A stretch of 64,000 bases of DNA from a plasmid. The stretch lies in the sequence record NZ_CP047975.1. One strand, written 5' to 3'. The notes beneath the pieces are model-generated. The model did not search any database. It was not told the origin of the DNA and was given only the letters and a program-made list of their open reading frames with translations. Made by a program: the position numbers and the translations under genes. Positions within the stretch are counted from its first letter, which is position 1. Each line of letters opens with the position of its first letter. Of the stretch, positions 2,644 to 48,034 are shown one piece after another.

Positions 2644-3627
2644 TTGTCAATATATCTATTTATAACATTTTCCTTAATATATCTCCCTATGAGTAACATA
2701 GTATATAAAGATAATAATTTGGTTGAAGCATCGTATTCACTAAATCTATCTGAGCAAAGGCTAATATTAATTGCGATCATTGCTGCTCGAGAAATTGAGA
2801 AAGAACTTACTTCTGATACTATACTTACGATTCATGCTTCTGAATACATGAAACAGTTTAATTTAGGACGTCAAGCATCTTATGAAGCGTTACAATCTGC
2901 ATGTGATAATCTTTTTGAACGGCATTTGAATTATAAAGCAGTAGATCCTATAACTGGAAAAATAGGAATATACAAAAGTAGGTGGGTTTCAAAAGTTGGT
3001 TATGTTAAGGAAGAGGGATGCGTCCAACTAATTTTTGCACCAGATATTATCCCCTTATTTGTAAAACTTGAAGAAAAGTTCACAAGATATGAACTTAAAC
3101 AAATCTCACCACTTACAAGCATTTATGCTATTCGCCTGTATGAGTTACTCATACGTTGGAGATCAACTGGTAAGTTATATATTTCTATAGATGAGCTTAG
3201 ATCAAAACTCGGATTGATAGAAGATGAATATAAAAAGATGGGAGACTTTAAAAAAAGGGTTCTTACCGTAGCTTTAAATCAAATTAACAAATTTACGGAT
3301 ATTACTGTTTCTTATATACAAAAAAAGGAGGGAAGAAATATTTCAGAATTACATTTCATGTTTGAAGAAAAAGAACAAAATAAAACGAGTACAAGTGCTC
3401 CTTTAGAGCCAACTTATAAATTGACAGCTAAGCAATGTATATTCTTTGCTAAAAAGCTATGTGATATTACTAACTATCCAAAATTTGGTAATGATTTCGC
3501 ACATCGTGGAGAGACTCTAGAAGACTTTCAGGAAAGGATATCAAGTGATCTTCTTGATAGCGATAATGTTAGAAAGTATTTTTCTTATTTGTTAGAAGTT
3601 GGTTATGCTCCTAAATACAAGAAGTAA
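2644..3627 (+). CDS. repB: Rep_3-family plasmid replication initiator (RepB-like; alternative start at 2689)
   Basis: 327-aa ORF downstream of the iterons. N-terminal NNLVEASYSLNLSEQRLILIAI is typical of Acinetobacter Rep_3 replicases. Confidence 0.85.
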   Translation: MSIYLFITFSLIYLPMSNIVYKDNNLVEASYSLNLSEQRLILIAIIAAREIEKELTSDTILTIHASEYMKQFNLGRQASYEALQSACDNLFERHLNYKAVDPITGKIGIYKSRWVSKVGYVKEEGCVQLIFAPDIIPLFVKLEEKFTRYELKQISPLTSIYAIRLYELLIRWRSTGKLYISIDELRSKLGLIEDEYKKMGDFKKRVLTVALNQINKFTDITVSYIQKKEGRNISELHFMFEEKEQNKTSTSAPLEPTYKLTAKQCIFFAKKLCDITNYPKFGNDFAHRGETLEDFQERISSDLLDSDNVRKYFSYLLEVGYAPKYKK

Positions 3628-4800: not shown

Positions 4801-4959
4801 GCAGAATCTCCTGCTCGTATCTTAAGAGAAAATTCTACTTTTAGATCCTATTTTTTTTAGGGGGGATTACCCTCTCATACTAAGTTTTTAATTAAGATTG
4901 CTTTCATGTGATTTTAATATGAATTAGCATAAGTTACATAACTTATGCTGGTTAAGTAA

Positions 4960-7900
4960 CCACCTATCCTGCCTTTATAATTTATTGCTGCAGTTCTCAT
5001 CATCATTGGAATAAGTGGACAGATTCCTGACACGGAATACTATAACTGAGGTCACCTAAATAGGATGCATAAATTATGTAAGTTACGCCACTTAAATAAG
5101 TTAAGGCGCTAAAGCGATAAAAGCTACATGATGGTCAGTACTGAGCACTGGCGATCTAAGTCAATGCTGCAGTTCTCATCATCATTGGAATAAGTGGACA
5201 AATTCCTGACATGGAAATTGCAGCGAGATTGGCTAAAGTTACTGCGCTGATTATCAGCCGAGATGTCGTTATTGATTATGCCTTATACGGAACTCCAGAG
5301 TTAGCCCTCGTTGCGAACAACAAAGCCAGAAATCCTGCAGTTCCGCGGACGCTGATAAGTAGACAGATTCCTGACACGGAATACTATAACTTACATCACT
5401 TAAATAGGATGCATAAGTTATGCAAGTTACGCCACTTAAATAAGTTAAGGCGCTAAAGCGATAAAAGCTACATGATGGTCAGTACTGAGCACTGGCGATC
5501 TAAGTCAATGCTGCAGTTCTCATCATCATTGGAATAAGTGGACAAATTCCTGACATGGAAATTGCAGCGAGATTGGCTAAAGTTACTGCGCTGATTATCA
5601 GCCGAGATGTCGTTATTGATTATGCCTTATACGGAACTCCAGAGTTAGCCCTCGTTGCGAACAACAAAGCCAGAAATCCTGCAGTTCCGCGGACGCTGAT
5701 AAGTAGACAGATTCCTGACACGGAATACTATAACTTACATCACTTAAATAGGATGCATAAGTTATGCAAGTTACGCCACTTAAATAAGTTAAGGCGCTAA
5801 AGCGATAAAAGCTACATGATGGTCAGTACTGAGCACTGGCGATCTAAGTCAATGCTGCAGTTCTCATCATCATTGGAATAAGTGGACAAATTCCTGACAT
5901 GGAAATTGCAGCGAGATTGGCTAAAGTTACTGCGCTGATTATCAGCCGAGATGTCGTTATTGATTATGCCTTATACGGAACTCCAGAGTTAGCCCTCGTT
6001 GCGAACAACAAAGCCAGAAATCCTGCAGTTCCGCGGACGCTGATAAGTAGACAGATTCCTGACACGGAATACTATAACTTACATCACTTAAATAGGATGC
6101 ATAAGTTATGCAAGTTACGCCACTTAAATAAGTTAAGGCGCTAAAGCGATAAAAGCTACATGATGGCCAGTACTGAGCACTGGCGATCTAAGTCAATGCT
6201 GCAGTTCTCATCATCATTGGAATAAGTGGACAAATTCCTGACATGGAAATTGCAGCGAGATTGGCTAAAGTTACTGCACTGATTATCAGTCGAGATGTCG
6301 TTATTGATTATGCCTTATACGGAACTCCAGAATTAGCCCTCGTTGCGAACAACAAAGCAGAAATCCTGCAGTTCCGCGGACGCTGATAAGTAGACAGATT
6401 CCTGACACGGAATACTATAACTTACATCACTTAAATAGGATGCATAAGTTGTGTAAGTTACGCCACTTAAATAAGTTAAGGCGCTAAAGCGATAAAAGCT
6501 ACATGATGGTCAGTACTGAGCACTGGCGATCTAAGTCAATGCTGCAGTTCTCATCATCATTGGAATAAGTGGACAAATTCCTGACATGGAAATTGCAGCG
6601 AGATTGGCTAAAGTTACTGCGCTGATTATCAGCCGAGATGTCGTTATTGATTATGCCTTATACGGAACTCCAGAGTTAGCCCTCGTTGCGAACAACAAAG
6701 CCAGAAATCCTGCAGTTCCGCGGACGCTGATAAGTAGACAGATTCCTGACACGGAATACTATAACTTACATCACTTAAATAGGATGCATAAGTTATGCAA
6801 GTTACGCCACTTAAATAAGTTAAGGCGCTAAAGCGATAAAAGCTACATGATGGCCAGTACTGAGCACTGGCGATCTAAGTCAATGCTGCAGTTCTCATCA
6901 TCATTGGAATAAGTGGACAAATTCCTGACATGGAAATTGCAGCGAGATTGGCTAAAGTTACTGCACTGATTATCAGTCGAGATGTCGTTATTGATTATGC
7001 CTTATACGGAACTCCAGAATTAGCCCTCGTTGCGAACAACAAAGCAGAAATCCTGCAGTTCCGCGGACGCTGATAAGTAGACAGATTCCTGACACGGAAT
7101 ACTATAACTTACATCACTTAAATAGGATGCATAAGTTATGCAAGTTACGCCACTTAAATAAGTTAAGGCGCTAAAGCGATAAAAGCTACATGATGGCCAG
7201 TACTGAGCACTGGCGATCTAAGTCAATGCTGCAGTTCTCATCATCATTGGAATAAGTGGACAAATTCCTGACATGGAAATTGCAGCGAGATTGGCTAAAG
7301 TTACTGCGCTGATTATCAGCCGAGATGTCGTTATTGATTATGCCTTATACGGAACTCCAGAGTTAGCCCTCGTTGCGAACAACAAAGCAGAAATCCTGCA
7401 GTTCCGCGGACGCTGATAAGTAGACAGATTCCTGACACGGAATACTATAACTTACATCACTTAAATAGGATGCATAAGTTATGCAAGTTACGCCACTTAA
7501 ATAAGTTAAGGCGCTAAAGCGATAAAAGCTACATGATGGCCAGTACTGAGCACTGGCGATCTAAGTCAATGCTGCAGTTCTCATCATCATTGGAATAAGT
7601 GGACAAATTCCTGACATGGAAATTGCAGCGAGATTGGCTAAAGTTACTGCGCTGATTATCAGCCGAGATGTCGTTATTGATTATGCCTTATACGGAACTC
7701 CAGAGTTAGCCCTCGTTGCGAACAACAAAGCAGAAATCCTGCAGTTCCGCGGACGCTGATAAGTAGACAGATTCCTGACACGGAATACTATAACTGAGGT
7801 CACCTAAATAGGATGCATAAATTATGTAAGTTACGCCACTTAAATAAGTTAAGGCGCTAAAGCGATAAAAGCTACATGATGGTCAGTACTGAGCACTGGC

Positions 7901-8395
7901 GATCTAAGTCAATGCTGCAGTTCTCATCATCATTGGAATAAGTGGACAAATTCCTGACATGGAAATTGCAGCGAGATTGGCTAAAGTTACTGCGCTGATT
8001 ATCAGCCGAGATGTCGTTATTGATTATGCCTTATACGGAACTCCAGAGTTAGCCCTCGTTGCGAACAACAAAGCCAGAAATCCTGCAGTTCCGCGGACGC
8101 TGATAAGTAGACAGATTCCTGACACGGAATACTATAACTTACATCACTTAAATAGGATGCATAAGTTATGCAAGTTACGCCACTTAAATAAGTTAAGGCG
8201 CTAAAGCGATAAAAGCTACATGATGGTCAGTACTGAGCACTGGCGATCTAAGTCAATGCTGCAGTTCTCATCATCATTGGAATAAGTGGACAAATTCCTG
8301 ACATGGAATACTATAACTGAGGTCACTTAAATGGGATGCATAAGTTATGTAAGTTACGCCACTTAAATAAGTTGAGGTGCTAAAGCGATAAAAGT
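4960..8395 (+). repeat. Tandem array of about 10 copies of a 344-bp non-coding repeat. Full units begin at about 5170, 5514, 5858, 6202, 6545, 6889, 7232, 7575 and 7918. Shortened variants sit at both ends
   Basis: Period of 344 bp between the identical 81-aa ORF starts at 5211, 5555 and 5899. Several copies carry a 1-bp deletion (aacaaagcagaaatcc versus aacaaagccagaaatcc) that breaks the ORF. Each unit holds two internal 28-bp sub-repeats, ataagtRgacaRattcctgacaYggaat. Confidence 0.9.
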
Positions 8396-8584
8396 GGCAC
8401 TGTTGGAAATATAGATTTAAGTCGATGATTTTTCCTTTAAAAAAAGTACTTAAAGACGGCTTTGTTGCACAAAGCTGTTTGTAAGGTCTGATTCAGCAAT
8501 ATAATTTCCGAATGAAGAAGCCAGCAACTAAAATCTACCGTACAACGAATTGGTCCGCATATAAACTCAGTGCGAGAAACTTTC

Positions 8585-8840
8585 AGAGCCAAGTGAATGA
8601 GATAACACTAAATATAAAAAAAATGGAAGAATAATTTACTAAGTTATTGTTTTTAAGTTGATCCTTGTTTTATATGGGGGTGATAATAACTTCTGATTAC
8701 TAGTTTTTACCTTAAATATACCGATTGAAAGATTCATTTAAAGGCTATGAATACATGAGTTTTACAGTTTGGCTAGGTCAGCATGAGTACTTTTCACAAG
8801 ATTTAAGATCGACCATGAACGTGATTAAGTTATAGGGGAT
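8585..8840 (+). repeat. Copy A of an approximately 260-bp direct repeat flanking the hipBA cassette
   Basis: About 65% overall identity with 11195-11440. A near-identical 40-bp core (aacactaaatataaaaaaa-tggaagaataattta) and agatcgaccat(g/a)aa(c/t)gtgat. Confidence 0.6.
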
Positions 8841-42093: not shown

Positions 42094-42183
42094 AACAAGT
42101 GGGACCACCTCTATATCTCGATAGGTATAGTAGAGTGATATCTCGATAGGTATAGTGTTTTGCAGTTTAGAGGAGATATCGCG

Positions 42184-43044
42184 ATGCATACGCGGAAGGC
42201 AATAACGGAGGCGCTTCAAAAACTCGGAGTCCAAACCGGTGACCTCTTGATGGTGCATGCCTCACTTAAAGCGATTGGTCCGGTCGAAGGAGGAGCGGAG
42301 ACGGTCGTTGCCGCGTTACGCTCCGCGGTTGGGCCGACTGGCACTGTGATGGGATACGCGTCGTGGGACCGATCACCCTACGAGGAGACTCTGAATGGCG
42401 CTCGGCTGGATGACGAAGCCCGCCGTACCTGGCTGCCGTTCGATCCCGCAACAGCCGGGACTTACCGTGGGTTCGGCCTGCTGAATCAATTTCTGGTTCA
42501 AGCCCCCGGCGCGCGGCGCAGCGCGCACCCCGATGCATCGATGGTCGCGGTTGGTCCGCTGGCTGAAACGCTGACGGAGCCTCACGAACTCGGTCACGCC
42601 TTGGGGGAAGGATCGCCCGTCGAGCGGTTCGTTCGCCTTGGCGGGAAGGCCCTGCTGTTGGGTGCGCCGCTAAACTCCGTTACCGCATTGCACTACGCCG
42701 AGGCGGTTGCCGATATCCCCAACAAACGGTGGGTGACGTATGAGATGCCGATGCTTGGAAGAGACGGTGAAGTCGCCTGGAAAACGGCATCGGATTACGA
42801 TTCAAACGGCATTCTCGATTGCTTTGCTATCGAAGGAAAGCCGGATGCGGTTGAAACTATAGCAAATGCTTACGTGAAGCTCGGTCGCCATCGAGAAGGT
42901 GTCGTGGGCTTTGCTCAGTGCTACCTGTTCGACGCGCAGGACATCGTGACGTTCGGCGTCACCTATCTTGAGAAGCATTTCGGAACCACTCCGATCGTGC
43001 CTCCGCACGAGGCCGTCGAGCGCTCTTGCGAGCCTTCAGGTTAG
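42184..43044 (+). CDS. aac(3)-II: Aminoglycoside 3-N-acetyltransferase AAC(3)-II (gentamicin resistance)
   Basis: 286 aa from MHTRKAITEALQKLGVQTGDLLMVHASLKAIGPVEGGAETV…, recognised as AAC(3)-IIa/IId. Confidence 0.93.
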   Translation: MHTRKAITEALQKLGVQTGDLLMVHASLKAIGPVEGGAETVVAALRSAVGPTGTVMGYASWDRSPYEETLNGARLDDEARRTWLPFDPATAGTYRGFGLLNQFLVQAPGARRSAHPDASMVAVGPLAETLTEPHELGHALGEGSPVERFVRLGGKALLLGAPLNSVTALHYAEAVADIPNKRWVTYEMPMLGRDGEVAWKTASDYDSNGILDCFAIEGKPDAVETIANAYVKLGRHREGVVGFAQCYLFDAQDIVTFGVTYLEKHFGTTPIVPPHEAVERSCEPSG

Positions 43045-43056
43045 AGGCCGTCGACA

Positions 43057-43599
43057 ATGATAATCTGGATCAACGGACCTTTCGGCGCCGGAAAGACGAC
43101 GCTCGCTAAGCGGCTGCGCGATCGGCGTTCCAAATCGCTGATCTTTGACCCCGAGGAAATCGGGTTCGTGGTGAAAGAAACGGTCCCCATGCCAGCGAGC
43201 GGAGACTATCAGGATCTCCCCTTGTGGAGGGGACTTACGATCGCGGCGGTCAGGGAGATTCGAAGGAATTACTCGCAGGACATCATCATCCCAATGACGC
43301 TCGTGCACCCGGACTATCTGACTGAGATACTCGACGGGGTAAGGCGGATCGACGATCAGCTGCTGCACATCTTTCTGACGCTCAACGAGGACCTATTGCG
43401 TCACCGGATCGCGAACCAGACCATGCATCCTGACCCGAATCGAAATGCGGAGATTCGAGAGTGGCGATTAGCGAATGTCGCCCGATGCTTGGCCGCAAGG
43501 GAACGGCTTCCATGCACAACCCGTGTTCTCGATAGTGGTGCACACACCAGCGATGAACTCGCAGCGATGGTGCTCGACGGAATCGATGGGCGCACCTGA
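43057..43599 (+). CDS. tmrB: TmrB-like ATP-binding protein (tunicamycin-resistance family), the usual partner downstream of aac(3)-II
   Basis: 180 aa. P-loop INGPFGAGKTTLAKRL. Confidence 0.8.
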   Translation: MIIWINGPFGAGKTTLAKRLRDRRSKSLIFDPEEIGFVVKETVPMPASGDYQDLPLWRGLTIAAVREIRRNYSQDIIIPMTLVHPDYLTEILDGVRRIDDQLLHIFLTLNEDLLRHRIANQTMHPDPNRNAEIREWRLANVARCLAARERLPCTTRVLDSGAHTSDELAAMVLDGIDGRT

Positions 43600-43692
43600 T
43601 CGCCTTCGACGCCTGCGCAAAGCGTAGCGCGAGGGTGGCGGGCTCACGACCAAACGCCCAGAGGTCGATCATCGCAGGGATGTTTGGCTTTG

Positions 43693-43991
43693 TGGTGCGG
43701 ACGACGGGACTCGAACCCGTACTCTCACAGAGAAGCAGATTTTCGTACCACCTCGACTTTCGCCGCCGTCTGATGACGTTCGTGGTCTGGACTGTCCCTT
43801 CGCCATTGCCCGAAGGCTTTAGGCGCCGCCCGTCCAGTCTCTACACCTTCCCCCGAAGGGGCTTGGCTCGGGATTGGCTTAGGGTATTGCCCGTTAGCGT
43901 TCCCCGACTTTGAGCGGTTCTACTCCGCGGATTTCCCCGCGGGCACTCCAATTTTAAAGTCTGCTGCGTCTACCGATTTCGCCACGTCCGC
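43693..43991 (-). tRNA. tRNA-Leu(UAA) gene interrupted by an approximately 213-nt group I intron between U34 and A35. 5' exon 43991..43957, intron 43956..43744, 3' exon 43743..43693
   Basis: The joined exons give an 86-nt type II tRNA: acceptor GCGGACG/CGTCCGC, D-arm GCGAAATCGGTAGACGC, anticodon stem GCAGA/TCTGC, loop CTTAAAA (anticodon TAA), variable hairpin TCTC-TGT-GAGA, T-arm ACGGG-TTCGAGT-CCCGT, discriminator A, CCA. The intron carries group I core elements …CAATCCCGAGCCAAGCC… and …AAGGTGTAGAGACTGGACGG…, ends in G, and a GAGU guide sequence can pair with the exon ACUU to give U•G at the splice site. Confidence 0.75.
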
Positions 43992-44552
43992 CTTTTTTCG
44001 CCGTTCCTAGCGCTCGTGCGATGCACCTATGTTGCACCTAGCGCCGAATCGTTCTTCGTCATCCTGAAAAACCACGTCTCCTAAAGCCTTGCATAGCTTA
44101 TCTTTTCTCCACCACGAACTTTTTTGTGGGATGGTAGAAAAAAAGACTTTTTAAGTCCGCTGGCTTGCCAGGCCTTGTTAGCTTGTACGGTCATGGTTAT
44201 CGGGTAAAGAATATTGACGGCATCGCTGGTGTCGGTGGCTGAAAAGCCGGCTCCCATCAGGGCAATAGCCATTTCAGATGCAGGCGTACAGGGCAATGGT
44301 CAACAGCTACAGCCTGTCTGACGATTCCGGCGTCATGGCTGCGGCGGCTATCACGCATTTTTTGTTCGGTCAGGCGGTGTTTTCGTACCTCAATGGTTGG
44401 AGCGTGTTGATCGGACCTGGTACAGGTTTGGACAGCACGGGCTGCAAATACGCAAGGGATTTAATGGGCCTGGTGGCGTTCACGGCTTTTATCGTGACGT
44501 TTCTGTTCAGGGGCTACTCATAATCTCGTGGCTCGGCGGTTCCCGGCACACC

Positions 44553-45710
44553 ATGACAGTAAGGAAGGACCCTGTGTCTCAACTCTCCCAGCTTCGAAGC
44601 CCCGCCGCCGTGCAGGCTGCCATCGATGAGTTCGTGCAACTGGGCCGCACGAAATTCCTGGCGCGCCACGGCTACGGCAAGTCCCGCGACTTCCTGGTAC
44701 GTGATCCGAAGACCGGCACCGATTGCGATTCCAAGGCCATCGCCGGTGTGGCCTTCGGCAAGCAATTTCCCGAGCAGGGCCCGCTCACTGCTGACAGCTT
44801 CTCCGGTGGCGAGGCGACCGTCGTTCCGGCGCTGACGCGGCTCGGGTTTCGCATCATTCGCATCGGCGAAGACTGGTCCGAAGAAGAGGTCCTGGCCACG
44901 GTCGAAGACTATTTCGACATGCTGCGTGCCGAGGCGGCTGGGGAGCCGTACAACAAGTCCGAGCACAACCAGGCACTGCGCCAACTGCTGAACGGTCGCA
45001 GCAAGTCTTCAGTCGAGCTCAAGCACCAGAACATTAGCGCCGTACTCGATGCCCTGGGCCTGCCCTATATCAACGGCTACAAGCCACGCGGCAACAGCCA
45101 ACTGCTGCTGCGTAAATCCGTACACGCCTACGTTCTGGAACATCAGCAGACGGTCGGCGCTCTTGTCGATGCCCTGGAGGAGGTAAAACTTCCGGGTGAC
45201 AAAACCTACCGAGCGGCTTTGGTAGAACCACCCGCCCGTGAAGTGCTTGTGCGTACCCCGGCATCTCTACGGCAACGCCTACCGCGAAAGTTCGATTATG
45301 CCGCTCGCGATGAAGCCAACCGCAAGCTGGGCCGGGCAGGGGAGCAGTGGGTGATTGGCTACGAACAGCAACGCCTGACCGAGCTCGGCCACCCAGAGCT
45401 TTTTCAGCGGCTGGATTGGGTGTCCGACACCCAGGGAGACGGTGCGGGGTTCGACATCCTGTCGTTCGAAGAGGACGCCCATGAGCGCTTCATCGAGGTG
45501 AAAACCACCAATGGCGGGGTAGGCTCGTCTTTCTTGGTCAGCCACAACGAACTCGAATTCTCCAAGGAGGCGGGCGATCAATTCCATCTGTATCGCGTGT
45601 TCCAGTTTCGGGACGGTCCGCGCCTGTTCACGCTACCCGGCGACCTCAGCCAACATGTGCATCTCAAGCCGACGGACTACCGGGCGAGTTTCCGGAGTTT
45701 GGTGGGGTAA
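44553..45710 (+). CDS. DUF3883-like (PD-(D/E)xK restriction-endonuclease-fold) C-terminal domain protein with an uncharacterised N-terminal domain. Start chosen at the MTVRK… ATG
   Basis: C-terminal FDILSFEEDAHERFIEVKTTNGGVGSSFLVSHNELEFSKEAGDQFHLYRVFQF is a D…E-x-K pattern. Confidence 0.55.
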   Translation: MTVRKDPVSQLSQLRSPAAVQAAIDEFVQLGRTKFLARHGYGKSRDFLVRDPKTGTDCDSKAIAGVAFGKQFPEQGPLTADSFSGGEATVVPALTRLGFRIIRIGEDWSEEEVLATVEDYFDMLRAEAAGEPYNKSEHNQALRQLLNGRSKSSVELKHQNISAVLDALGLPYINGYKPRGNSQLLLRKSVHAYVLEHQQTVGALVDALEEVKLPGDKTYRAALVEPPAREVLVRTPASLRQRLPRKFDYAARDEANRKLGRAGEQWVIGYEQQRLTELGHPELFQRLDWVSDTQGDGAGFDILSFEEDAHERFIEVKTTNGGVGSSFLVSHNELEFSKEAGDQFHLYRVFQFRDGPRLFTLPGDLSQHVHLKPTDYRASFRSLVG

Positions 45711-45797
45711 AGGCAGGGTTCTGTTGAGCCGAATGGCTGTGTGCGGCCGATTCTGTTGAAAAAGTAGCGGCCTCCCCATGCCGTTGGCAAAATTGCT

Positions 45798-47196
45798 TTG
45801 TCAGCGAGCGTGGGGGCGAACAGCATGATGGGACAGTTACCGGGAGGACAGCAGCGCCTGTTCTACTCGTTCAATCTGGAAGATCACGTCCCGGCCCAAC
45901 ATCTCCTGCGCAGCATCGACCAGTGCTTGGATCTCAGTGATCTACGTGCCTACCTGGCAGATTTCTATAGCCCCATCGGGCGTCCCTCGATTGACCCGGA
46001 GTTGATGGTGCGCATGCTGGTCGTCGGCTACTTGCTATGGCATTCGTTCCGAGCGGCGATTGTGCGAAGAGGTGCACCTGAACCTGGCCTATCGCTGGTT
46101 CTGCCGGTTGGGTCTGGAAGACGAAGTCCCCAATCACTCGACCTTCTCGAAGAATCGCCATGGGCGTTTTCGTGACAGCGATCTATTCCGCTGGTTATTC
46201 AATGAGGTGCTGCGGCGCTGCATGGCAGCCGGCCTAGTCAAGGGTGAAGGTTTCGCCGTCGACGCCAGCATCATTAAGGCGGATGCCAGCCGGCAACGTG
46301 GGGTGGCGGGAGATGAGGTCGATTGGAACGATCCAAAGCTCAGCAGCCGCGCAGTGCGCGAGTACCTCGAAGCCCTTGATGAAGAGGCGCTGGCTGAGGC
46401 TCTTCCCAAGAAAATTTCGCTCACTGATCCTCAGTCCCGTTGGACAGCAGCGCCAGGTGGCCCGGCCTTTTTTGCCTACTCCACGAATTACCTGATCGAC
46501 ACTGAGCACGGTGTGATCATGGACGTGGAAGCTACCCCGGCGCACCGTACCGCCGAAGTCGATTCGACTAGGACGATGGTCGAGCGTGTCGAGGCGCAGT
46601 TCGATCTCACACCGGAACGCCTTATCGGCGATACCGCTTATGGCACCGCCCCGATGCTGGCCTGGATGGTCGAAGAAAAGGACATCGAACCGCATGTGCC
46701 GGTGTGGGACAAGACCGAGCGCAAGGACGACAGCCTCTCCAGTAACGACTTTCACTGGAGTCAGGACGCCAATGAATATCGCTGCCCAGCCGGCAAACCG
46801 CTACGCAGTGAATGGCGCGCCTTCACCCAGCAAAGGTCGCGGGTAACTAAGGCCAAAACCGTCATTTACCGCTCCAGCCAAACCGACTGCGCCACCTGCC
46901 CGTTGAAAGCGAAATGCTGCCCCAACACGCCGAATCGGAAGATCGTCCGCAGCATCCATGAGGCTGCCCGCGACGTGGCTCGACGCATCGCCAAGACACC
47001 GGAGTACCTCGTCTCTCGCTGCGAACGAAAGAAGGTGGAGATGCTTTTCGCCCACCTCAAACGGATCATGAAACTCGACCGTTTACGACTGCGTGGCCTA
47101 ACGGGTGCCACTGACGAATTCACCTTGGCTGCGATGGTGCAGAACCTGCGCCGCATGGCCAAGCTTTTGCCTCAAGGGCCACCGCTGACGGGATAG
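45798..47196 (+). pseudogene. IS1182/IS5-superfamily transposase split by a frameshift near 46040-46060 into 125-aa and 378-aa ORFs
   Basis: N-terminal part …LVVGYLLW… continues in another frame as …CEEVHLNLAYRWFCRLGLEDEVPNHSTFSKNR…. Confidence 0.7.
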
Positions 47197-47779
47197 GTAT
47201 GCCTGCTACGAGCAGAAACCCTCAAATTAACCCTTAAACCTGAGCAAGGACGCTCAGTGAAACGCCGGAAGGCAACTTGAAGTGGCTTGCAGCCACTTCG
47301 ACAGCAGGCACACCTGATCGGCAGGCTGCCGCTAAAGCTACTTTTTCAACAGAATCGGCCGATTTGTGCCGGTCGTCAAGGACCGCTTCGGATCACTCTC
47401 AACCGGATCGCGGGCCAGCTGATTTGCTAAAACCCGCGCCAAACTCAACGAAGGATTTCGCATGATCCGTTTTTTTTGGCGATCACGCTCGGCCTGATGG
47501 TTGGCTGCTCGTCGAGTTCAAGTTCGATCTGATCAGTGAGCGGTAGCGCAAGTGGATCGCCTCAGCCAAGCAGCGTTGTTGCCGGCGGCCGGAAGAAAGC
47601 CTTGAACTAGTAGCGGAAAGGATGAAACTTTATTTTTACGATTCTCAGCATTTTCCAAGGTTGAGCGAAAATTAGGATGATACTTTAATGATTCCGGCCT
47701 CCATCCCCACAAAACGCTTGCAGATGGCAGAATTGAAATAAGTCATTGTTTTAAATGGATTTTTGCAGGAATTGCTACG

Positions 47780-48034
47780 TTGCAGGGTCCTGTAGTTAGG
47801 ATGACACTTTATTTTCCTCCCACAATCAAAGCATCCATCCATGCATTTGTGAAATCAGAACCCATTGAACGCATTGAGTTTGAAAAAAACTTGCTGAACT
47901 TAGGTATCGTGAACAATTATGAAAAATATATAGACTACAATAATTTGCTGTTTCACGTTTTGTTTAGCAAATGGATTAACAGTCCAGTTGACTTTGGATA
48001 TTTTGTCGATCAAAACTTTTACGGTGCCAGCTAA
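47780..48034 (+). CDS. Hypothetical protein (84 aa)
   Basis: ORF only. Confidence 0.25.
   Translation: MQGPVVRMTLYFPPTIKASIHAFVKSEPIERIEFEKNLLNLGIVNNYEKYIDYNNLLFHVLFSKWINSPVDFGYFVDQNFYGAS

Follow-up and report, generated by a model that had tools for sequence, protein, structure and literature searches.

Small group I introns of the IC3 type, such as those of Anabaena and Azoarcus, self-splice without proteins, and in known group I introns the guanosine-binding site is held by the P7 helix. Here, a transfer RNA (tRNA) gene interrupted by an intron of this kind is described from plasmid record NZ_CP047975.1, of which a stretch of 64,000 nucleotides (nt), hereafter called the window, was analysed. 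It is a tRNA-Leu(UAA) gene with a group I intron inserted in it, read from the minus strand at positions 43693–43991, with the bounds of exons and insert exact to the base. Very probably, this is an intact gene derived from soil Alphaproteobacteria, with an IC3-type group I intron between U34 and A35, that travels as a passenger of about 466 base pairs (bp) in the widely disseminated resistance module of aac(3)-IId, a very common gentamicin-resistance gene; this degree of confidence covers the identity and origin of the element.

According to the available text of a survey covering 80,413 genomes, Leu.3Ug is among four types of bacterial tRNA intron that have been known for a long time and that all belong to IC3 (Williams, 2020; doi 10.1101/2020.01.27.920355). 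The features that define Leu.3Ug were found in the window copy, namely an intron between anticodon-loop positions 3 and 4 (CUU/.../AAAA), a U at position −1, and a g at the omega position. The parts of the gene are as follows (a slash marks the exon junction).

43957–43991, minus strand: tRNA-Leu(UAA) exon 1, 35 nt, comprising the 5′ strand of the acceptor stem, the D arm, the 5′ strand of the anticodon stem, and C32-U33-U34
43744–43956, minus strand: group I intron, 213 nt, of the IC3 type "Leu.3Ug", with helices P1–P9 and a P7 pseudoknot, between U34 and A35
43693–43743, minus strand: tRNA-Leu(UAA) exon 2, 51 nt, comprising A35–A38, the 3′ strand of the anticodon stem, the long variable arm, the T arm, and the 3′ strand of the acceptor stem
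43945–43950, minus strand: internal guide sequence UGGAGU, the 3′ strand of P1, in which G43948 pairs with U−1 (43957) as the splice-site U•G
43789–43917, minus strand: catalytic core from P3 to the 3′ strand of P7, matched by the covariance model of the family
43932–43935, minus strand: L2 GAAA tetraloop, a loop invariant or nearly so in the alignment described below
43758–43761, minus strand: L9b GAAA tetraloop, likewise invariant or nearly so
Joined exons, minus strand: predicted spliced product, with the ligated junction ...GCAGACTT/AAAATCTGC..., also written GCAGCAGACTT/AAAATCTGCTTC

The final four bases of exon 1, ACUU, form the 5′ strand of P1, and the last base of the intron is the omega-G (43744). 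P7 is composed of 43841–43835 and 43794–43789, with a bulged A. Exon 2 carries the discriminator A73 and an encoded CCA (43695–43693). Receptor-like CCUAA(A)G...AUGG motifs are located in P8 and P5 of the intron, and these, by analogy with the architecture of the Azoarcus intron, presumably form tetraloop–receptor pairs with L2 and L9b. Joining of the exons gives an 86-nt type II tRNA with a long variable arm, called tRNA-Leu(taa) by ARAGORN. When P1–P9 with the P7 pseudoknot and the cloverleaf were drawn by hand on the window sequence, all 88 pairs were canonical (64/64 in the intron and 24/24 in the tRNA), those of the cloverleaf being Watson–Crick throughout. A first-pass annotation of the window had transcribed the minus-strand letters, paired the stems by eye, and described an 86-nt tRNA with a long variable arm, anticodon UAA, Watson–Crick stems, and an encoded CCA, together with an insert at the classical U34/A35 site, core motifs, a terminal G, and a GAGU/ACUU pairing with a splice-site U•G. 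The letters proved exact, the insert is located exactly at that site with a length of 213 nt, and each of the quoted motifs and pairings was present on exact coordinates.

Relatives of the gene were collected by scanning GTDB species genomes with a tRNA-Leu-anchored pattern, which returned at least 120 matching rows. From the matches listed, 97 genes, including the window copy, were extracted, and 56 of these were aligned with MAFFT, in which the variable arm was misaligned. U at −1, omega-G, and a spliced tRNA-Leu(UAA) were each found in 97/97 extracted family members. In the 56-sequence alignment, 95.9% of the intron pair cells were paired as drawn, versus 27–47% when the 3′ partners were slid by 1–3 columns; both sides had changed in 36 of the 64 pairs (11–17 of 64 in the slid controls), and the covariation score was 0.271 (0.03–0.06 in the slid controls). 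Compensatory changes were present in each of P3, P7, and P8. The splice-site U•G pair (alignment columns 35/49; U35•G44 in the window) was invariant in 56/56 sequences. Five pairs of P7 were also invariant, and the sixth covaried, being A-U in 47 sequences and G-C in 8. Furthermore, covariation was seen in the acceptor, anticodon, and T stems of the cloverleaf.

For R1, a covariance model of the P3–P7 core, 52 relatives were used, and the window copy and its three closest genome relatives were excluded. R1 gave a single match in the 64-kilobase (kb) window, at 43789–43917 on the minus strand, at full length and with 122.2 bits (E = 2.9e-30). Because of the covariation and this 122.2-bit match, the insert is judged to be a true group I intron, of the small IC3 type seen in bacterial tRNA genes.

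The plasmid copy is structurally intact and among the most canonical members of the family. Of the 207 columns with at least 90% conservation among the other 55 sequences, it differs at only one, an unpaired position where it agrees with the nearest relative. The 15–22 differences from the three nearest relatives are located in loops or are compensatory, as in the change of U216-A223 to C-G in P9a.

The matches listed for the family come mainly from Alphaproteobacteria, and also from Acidobacteriota, Bacteroidota, Planctomycetota, a few Gammaproteobacteria, and one Tsukamurella. Among them, the closest whole-gene relative is that of Enterovirga aerilata (Methylobacteriaceae; 95.4% identity), followed by the genes of a Bradyrhizobiaceae metagenome-assembled genome (MAG) chromosome (95.0%), a Novosphingobium MAG (93.4%), and Rhodovulum steppense (89.4%); a Rhizobiaceae copy is 75% identical. 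The search for a donor by similarity, as proposed in the first pass, thereby reached an alphaproteobacterial lineage, not the true donor, the best of the matches listed being 95% identical. With respect to the seed introns of the Williams 2020 survey, the intron is 77% identical to Mti5.Thr.3Ug, 76% to Ncf2.Leu.3Ug, and 71% to Rur1.Arg.5Ug; identities to the Azoarcus tRNA-Ile and Synechococcus tRNA-Leu seeds are 60% and 59%, respectively.

An intron-split tRNA-Leu(UAA) gene was also observed on a 317-kb conjugative plasmid of Bradyrhizobium sp. ISRA436 (positions 3001–3290 of extracted locus L003), where it adjoins trbI/trbH/trbG. This copy is 71.5% identical to that of the window, with compensatory changes in almost every helix; therefore, plasmid-borne copies occur in the native phylum too. 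Distant family members, with at most 74% identity, are carried by 76 viral or prophage contigs of IMG/VR (loci L138–L213), and many of these copies are located near a contig end, as would be the case for prophages whose boundaries coincide with tRNA genes. The intron mode of ARAGORN often misplaces the intron in L005, L117, L019, L023, and about 30 other loci, with labels such as Phe(gaa), Ser(tga), and Ser(aga). All of these loci are Leu(UAA) when spliced by the U−1/omega-G rule, and this misplacement is a systematic source of mis-annotation.

Comparison with native relatives (three genomes and two metagenome loci) delimits the transferred piece. Similarity starts exactly at the CCA (43693) and reaches about 50–170 bp into the leader, the end point varying among the relatives from about 44042 to 44158, and the sequence directly after the CCA differs in every native locus. 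The piece is thus 43693–44158, or 466 bp, and contains the tRNA, the intron, and the native leader. Its upstream part, together with the native counterpart of its outer end, is as follows.

43992–44158, minus strand: native upstream leader, about 166 bp, conserved in five alphaproteobacterial or metagenomic relatives
44158–44131, minus strand: remnant of an orphan tRNA-Leu 5′ half, its last 28 nt with a terminator-like hairpin, the plasmid module being cut inside the orphan
L117 about 2122–2085 (minus strand), L019 3523–3560 (plus strand), L130 85–131, and L131 3590–3636: orphan tRNA-Leu 5′ half in native loci

In at least four native loci, the leader is preceded by this orphan half, the end of which is an intact anticodon loop without an intron (CTTAAAA); a terminator-like hairpin and a T-run come next, and a diverged version of the orphan is present in L023. 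The orphan half is located about 166–196 bp upstream of the intron-split gene, its anticodon-stem strand is mismatched to the intact gene, and it is present in only a few of 92 loci. It may be the scar of an integrase attachment site, but it is found in few loci only, and one locus seems, by eye, to carry a complete tandem tRNA-Leu. A decayed tandem copy is thus a simpler explanation than a recombination scar. A loose search for repeats of the tRNA 3′ end gave output too noisy to be read. A metagenome scan for the orphan–leader junction yielded two further native loci with 83–84% identity, in neither of which window-like flanks were found.

Within the leader, a direct repeat of TAGGTGCA occurs at 44040–44033 and 44029–44022 on the minus strand, with an 11-nt period and 31–49 nt upstream of the 5′ end of the tRNA. 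The repeat is conserved in three aligned genome relatives, and may be a non-consensus promoter or a regulator site.

The plasmid copy is widely distributed. With 100% identity, the 501 bp around the gene recur in 1,322 PLSDB plasmids, whose hosts include Escherichia, Klebsiella, Salmonella, and Acinetobacter. The identical stretch also occurs in 656 of the 5,426 complete E. coli genomes (about 12%), with 86 chromosomal places. An aac(3)-II gene was found in 2,339 plasmids, of which 1,549 carry the IId allele at an identity of at least 99%, and the tRNA module is kept in about 83% of the aac(3)-IId plasmids. The 213 nt of the intron are taken up by conserved helices, loops, and junctions, and no homing-endonuclease open reading frame (ORF) was found in it. 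Having no space for an ORF, the intron is not of the homing kind, and what makes it mobile here is the surrounding module, which is bounded by insertion sequences (IS).

As the first-pass annotation had anticipated, the gene is missed by standard finders. ARAGORN in default mode called no tRNA genes in the whole window, Rfam at gathering thresholds gave no matches in the same 64 kb, and two RefSeq-derived annotations that were inspected contain no feature between the TmrB-like gene and a 63-amino-acid "hypothetical protein". The intron mode of ARAGORN, run on the unspliced DNA, proposed a "tRNA-Stop(tta)"; this call was rejected, the intron being misplaced and the spliced exons being Leu(taa). 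The blank results of default ARAGORN and of Rfam at gathering thresholds reflect the limits of these tools, and are not evidence of absence. The plus-strand ORF at 43635–43913, also pointed out in the first pass as overlapping the gene, does exist; it is antisense to the intron, and no NCBIfam family matched it. The 63-amino-acid protein (WP_000951934.1), annotated by the Prokaryotic Genome Annotation Pipeline (PGAP) at about 44081–44272 on the minus strand, lies across both the leader of the tRNA and the orphan remnant, and probably is not a real gene product. A second PGAP "hypothetical protein", WP_000248278.1, is annotated at 44296–44523 on the plus strand.

In the open-access literature, tmrB was not found mentioned together with tRNA-Leu; an "intron" in one tmrB paper turned out to be a group II intron. 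The plasmid-borne sequence is not discussed in the text of the Williams 2020 survey as available, although that survey must have met it if enterobacterial assemblies were included. The element had been called unusual in the first pass. This description suits the plasmid location, which seems unreported, but not the kind, which is a classical and widespread bacterial type.

Several observations weigh against the reading of the locus as an intact passenger gene. The first of these concern its identity. In a sensitive scan of 43500–44200, the Rfam model Intron_gpI (RF00028) was matched over model positions 1–253 of 253 with 36.8 bits (E = 1e-7), which is below the RF00028 gathering score of 50. 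In addition, a minimum free energy (MFE) fold recovers 10 helices, yet has a z-score of −1.22, no better than shuffled sequences. Taken with the blank results of default ARAGORN and of Rfam at its gathering threshold, these values are what a chance resemblance or a degraded pseudogene would be expected to give. However, the covariation and the 122-bit match to the family model effectively refute such an explanation, which we regard as exceedingly improbable, and the MFE z-score is uninformative. The available text of the survey states that the Rfam group I seed has no bacterial sequences and that cut-offs of about 18–20 bits were used for bacterial tRNA introns (Williams, 2020; doi 10.1101/2020.01.27.920355). 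The check with group I covariance models suggested in the first pass was therefore mixed for Rfam, at 36.8 bits, and clearly positive for R1, which is made from bacterial relatives.

The remaining points concern activity and benefit. About 15–20% of the plasmids with aac(3)-IId, and nearly all of those with aac(3)-IIe, are without the tRNA module, so that the resistance module does not need the tRNA. That the copies in over 1,300 plasmids are identical is due to recent spread, and is not informative about selection. A crude promoter scan of 43550–44350, limited to the sigma-70 consensus, gave no promoter, nor was an intrinsic terminator detected there, and aac(3)-IId and tmrB converge on the tRNA, such that read-through from them would be antisense.

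From its conserved anatomy, the gene would be expected to act as follows. Transcription of the minus strand would allow the exon ACUU to pair with the intron guide GAGU, forming P1 with a U•G wobble at the splice site. The P3–P8 core would fold with the P7 pseudoknot, and the GAAA tetraloops L2 and L9b would probably brace this fold. A free guanosine held in P7 would attack after U34, and the omega-G (43744) would then replace the guanosine, leading to ligation of the exons. The resulting 86-nt type II tRNA would have a UAA anticodon, A73 as its discriminator, and the encoded CCA. In Acinetobacter or Enterobacteriaceae, transcription, self-splicing, and aminoacylation would all have to take place. 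Since IC3 introns self-splice unaided, transcription would be the limiting step. Expression and splicing in clinical hosts are possible, but seem to us rather less probable than silence; any fitness effect is very unlikely.

A slightly better than even case can be made that the gene is a silent hitch-hiker, intact only by virtue of its recent transfer, untranscribed or uncharged in its new hosts, and due to decay or to be lost through IS26 deletions. The failure of the scan to find a sigma-70 consensus promoter upstream and the convergence of the neighbouring genes are consistent with this, as is the presence of the module in about 1,300 of the 2,339 aac(3)-II plasmids, with IS26 truncations at various points. 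Moreover, all copies are 100% identical, leaving no time for purifying selection to show. However, about 166 bp of conserved native leader with the TAGGTGCA repeat came along, the promoter scan was crude, and group I splicing of the IC3 type is generally known to need no host protein. Such silence concerns activity only, and is compatible with the identity of the element as given above.

The opposite proposal, in which the gene is expressed and self-splicing and the extra tRNA-Leu(UAA) aids the decoding of UUA/UUG with a gain in plasmid or host fitness, is highly improbable. The gene is complete (A73, CCA), its core is undamaged, its native leader is retained, and about 83% of the plasmids with aac(3)-IId have kept the module. 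This retention is explained equally well by linkage to aac(3)-IId between IS copies, no consensus promoter was found, and the hosts already have their own tRNA-Leu(UAA). That the precursor is transcribed, self-spliced, and charged in Enterobacteriaceae and Acinetobacter, and that the fragment also marks Alphaproteobacteria as the place where aac(3)-IId was assembled, would be unlikely as a combination. The reading retained here is that of a well-preserved alphaproteobacterial tRNA-Leu(UAA) gene carried along with the resistance module.

The surroundings of this passenger are a patchwork. The window backbone is an Acinetobacter plasmid, and the module at 42150–47824 is 99.95% identical to pCTX-M3. 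The blocks on the two sides of the tRNA are as follows.

42160–43599, plus strand: aac(3)-IId (annotated coding sequence about 42184–43044) and the gene of a TmrB-like AAA ATPase (43057–43599), transcribed towards the tRNA and thus convergent with it
44575–47360, plus strand: DUF3883 (ScoMcrA_N/NOV_C) gene and ISCfr1 (IS1182 family), with 89.6% identity to and collinear with a Stutzerimonas kunmingensis contig

No relative was found for the 95-bp spacer between the aac(3)/tmrB block and the tRNA (43598–43692), nor for the 416 bp upstream of the leader (44159–44574). The sequence at 42130–43597 has 86.3% nucleotide identity to Rhizobiaceae-like environmental contigs of 122–176 kb (L124, positions 7072–8541; also L125 and L126), the proteins of which are 87.8% (AAC(3)) and 88% (TmrB) identical to those of the window. 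On these contigs, the same overlapping aac(3)–tmrB pair is located among genes syntenic with Sinorhizobium meliloti, and no tRNA was found near it. Sinorhizobium meliloti itself has only a tmrB homologue (81%). The contigs hint that aac(3)-II stems from a Rhizobiaceae-like source; no open-access paper was found that reports this, or any alphaproteobacterial origin of aac(3)-II.

On the other side, the Stutzerimonas kunmingensis contig (L132, positions 6002–8768; Gammaproteobacteria) has the DUF3883 gene following that of a 1,729-amino-acid DEAD/UvrD helicase, which suggests that 44575–47360 is a fragment of a gammaproteobacterial defence-type locus captured with an IS. A 1-nt T insertion at 46032 relative to pCTX-M3 splits the ISCfr1 transposase into ORFs at 45798–46175 and 46060–47196; this insertion may be a true frameshift or may be an error in the sequencing.

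The aac(3)-IIe context (pKPX-2; L137, positions 4950–6130) has a GC-rich, IS26-truncated element of the IS3 family about 10 bp after the tmrB stop; therefore, the IId and IIe modules share only 42141–43609. Because of this interruption 10 bp after tmrB, aac(3)-IIe was dropped as an independent witness of the DNA downstream of tmrB.

The first-pass annotation had assigned the tRNA to the same foreign donor as the aac(3)-II–tmrB segment on the basis of guanine–cytosine (GC) content. This assignment does not hold: GC content does not identify a common donor, because the equally GC-rich DUF3883–ISCfr1 block is collinear with gammaproteobacterial Stutzerimonas. By similarity, the high-GC region is assembled from several sources, namely Rhizobiaceae-like, alphaproteobacterial tRNA, and Stutzerimonas-like pieces. 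An alphaproteobacterial source is possible for both the tRNA module and the aac(3)/tmrB block, and it is conceivable, if rather doubtful, that the two were adjacent in a single alphaproteobacterium, for example with the resistance genes on an island integrated at the 3′ end of the tRNA, and that a single capture took both. The nearest relatives of both blocks are alphaproteobacterial, the blocks are 95 bp apart, and the similarity to native tRNA loci ends at the CCA, a classic point of island integration. However, the only native aac(3)–tmrB contexts found (L124–L126) have no tRNA nearby and have neighbours syntenic with Sinorhizobium, and the closest relatives of the tRNA belong to Methylobacteriaceae, Bradyrhizobiaceae, and Sphingomonadales, with the Rhizobiaceae copy only 75% identical among the matches listed. 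The third GC-rich block is gammaproteobacterial, which proves that several sources contributed to the region, and the aac(3)-IIe context is uninformative on this point, with the IS lying 10 bp after tmrB.

Overall, an intact structured RNA gene in about 1,300 plasmids and 656 complete E. coli genomes is absent from the two RefSeq-derived annotations inspected. Group I introns are not dealt with by the standard tRNA finders, and the Rfam model scores the intron below its threshold. As a donor tag, the fragment helps in tracing the aac(3)-IId module, and its sequences can be used to search for true donors. Together with the relatives of aac(3)–tmrB and DUF3883–ISCfr1, the tag shows the aac(3)-IId module to be a composite from environmental Alpha- and Gammaproteobacteria. 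If the gene is active, a cellular group I ribozyme, and with it an additional tRNA-Leu(UAA), would be a routine constituent of clinical enterobacteria, including about 12% of the complete E. coli genomes; if it is inactive, the gene is only a well-preserved passenger. No new mechanism is shown, and the novelty is the medically prominent location of a well-known kind of element.

Among known systems, the alphaproteobacterial Leu.3Ug introns (Ncf2, Enterovirga aerilata, Bradyrhizobiaceae) are the most similar, with the same tRNA, insertion site, helices, and GAAA tetraloops and with a shared upstream leader. Unlike these, which are parts of chromosomal tRNA genes, the window copy is a 466-bp fragment in an IS-bounded resistance module, and the orphan 5′ half upstream of it is shortened relative to native loci. 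The tRNA-Leu(UAA) intron of cyanobacteria and plastids (Anabaena/Nostoc, Synechococcus) has the identical site, IC3 architecture, splice-site U•G, and omega-G, and shares the core strings AAUCCyGAGCCAAG and GGUGyAGAGACU with the window intron. The window intron differs from it in being GC-rich, in its shorter P6 and P9 peripheries, and in belonging to a proteobacterial clade, with 59% identity to the Synechococcus seed.

The tRNA-Ile(CAU) intron of Azoarcus (Ile2.5Ug) is of similar size (about 205–213 nt), is also GC-rich, and has the same core; judging by the sequence, the likeness presumably extends to the L2/L9 GAAA tetraloops and the CCUAAG/UAUGG-like receptors of the Azoarcus structure. 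It is, however, located in another tRNA and at another anticodon-loop position, with 60% identity. The Agrobacterium-type tRNA-Arg(CCU) (Arg.5Ug) and Thr.3Ug introns have 71–77% intron identity, and the P7 variant GACUG/CAGUC is common to the window intron and the seed Rur1.Arg, but their host tRNAs and splice-site positions are different. The group I introns usually associated with E. coli are those of enterobacterial phages (T4 td, nrdB, and sunY), which belong to subgroup IA2, interrupt protein-coding genes, and often contain homing-endonuclease ORFs. In contrast to these, the element described here is located in a tRNA gene, is free of an ORF, and is carried by a plasmid.

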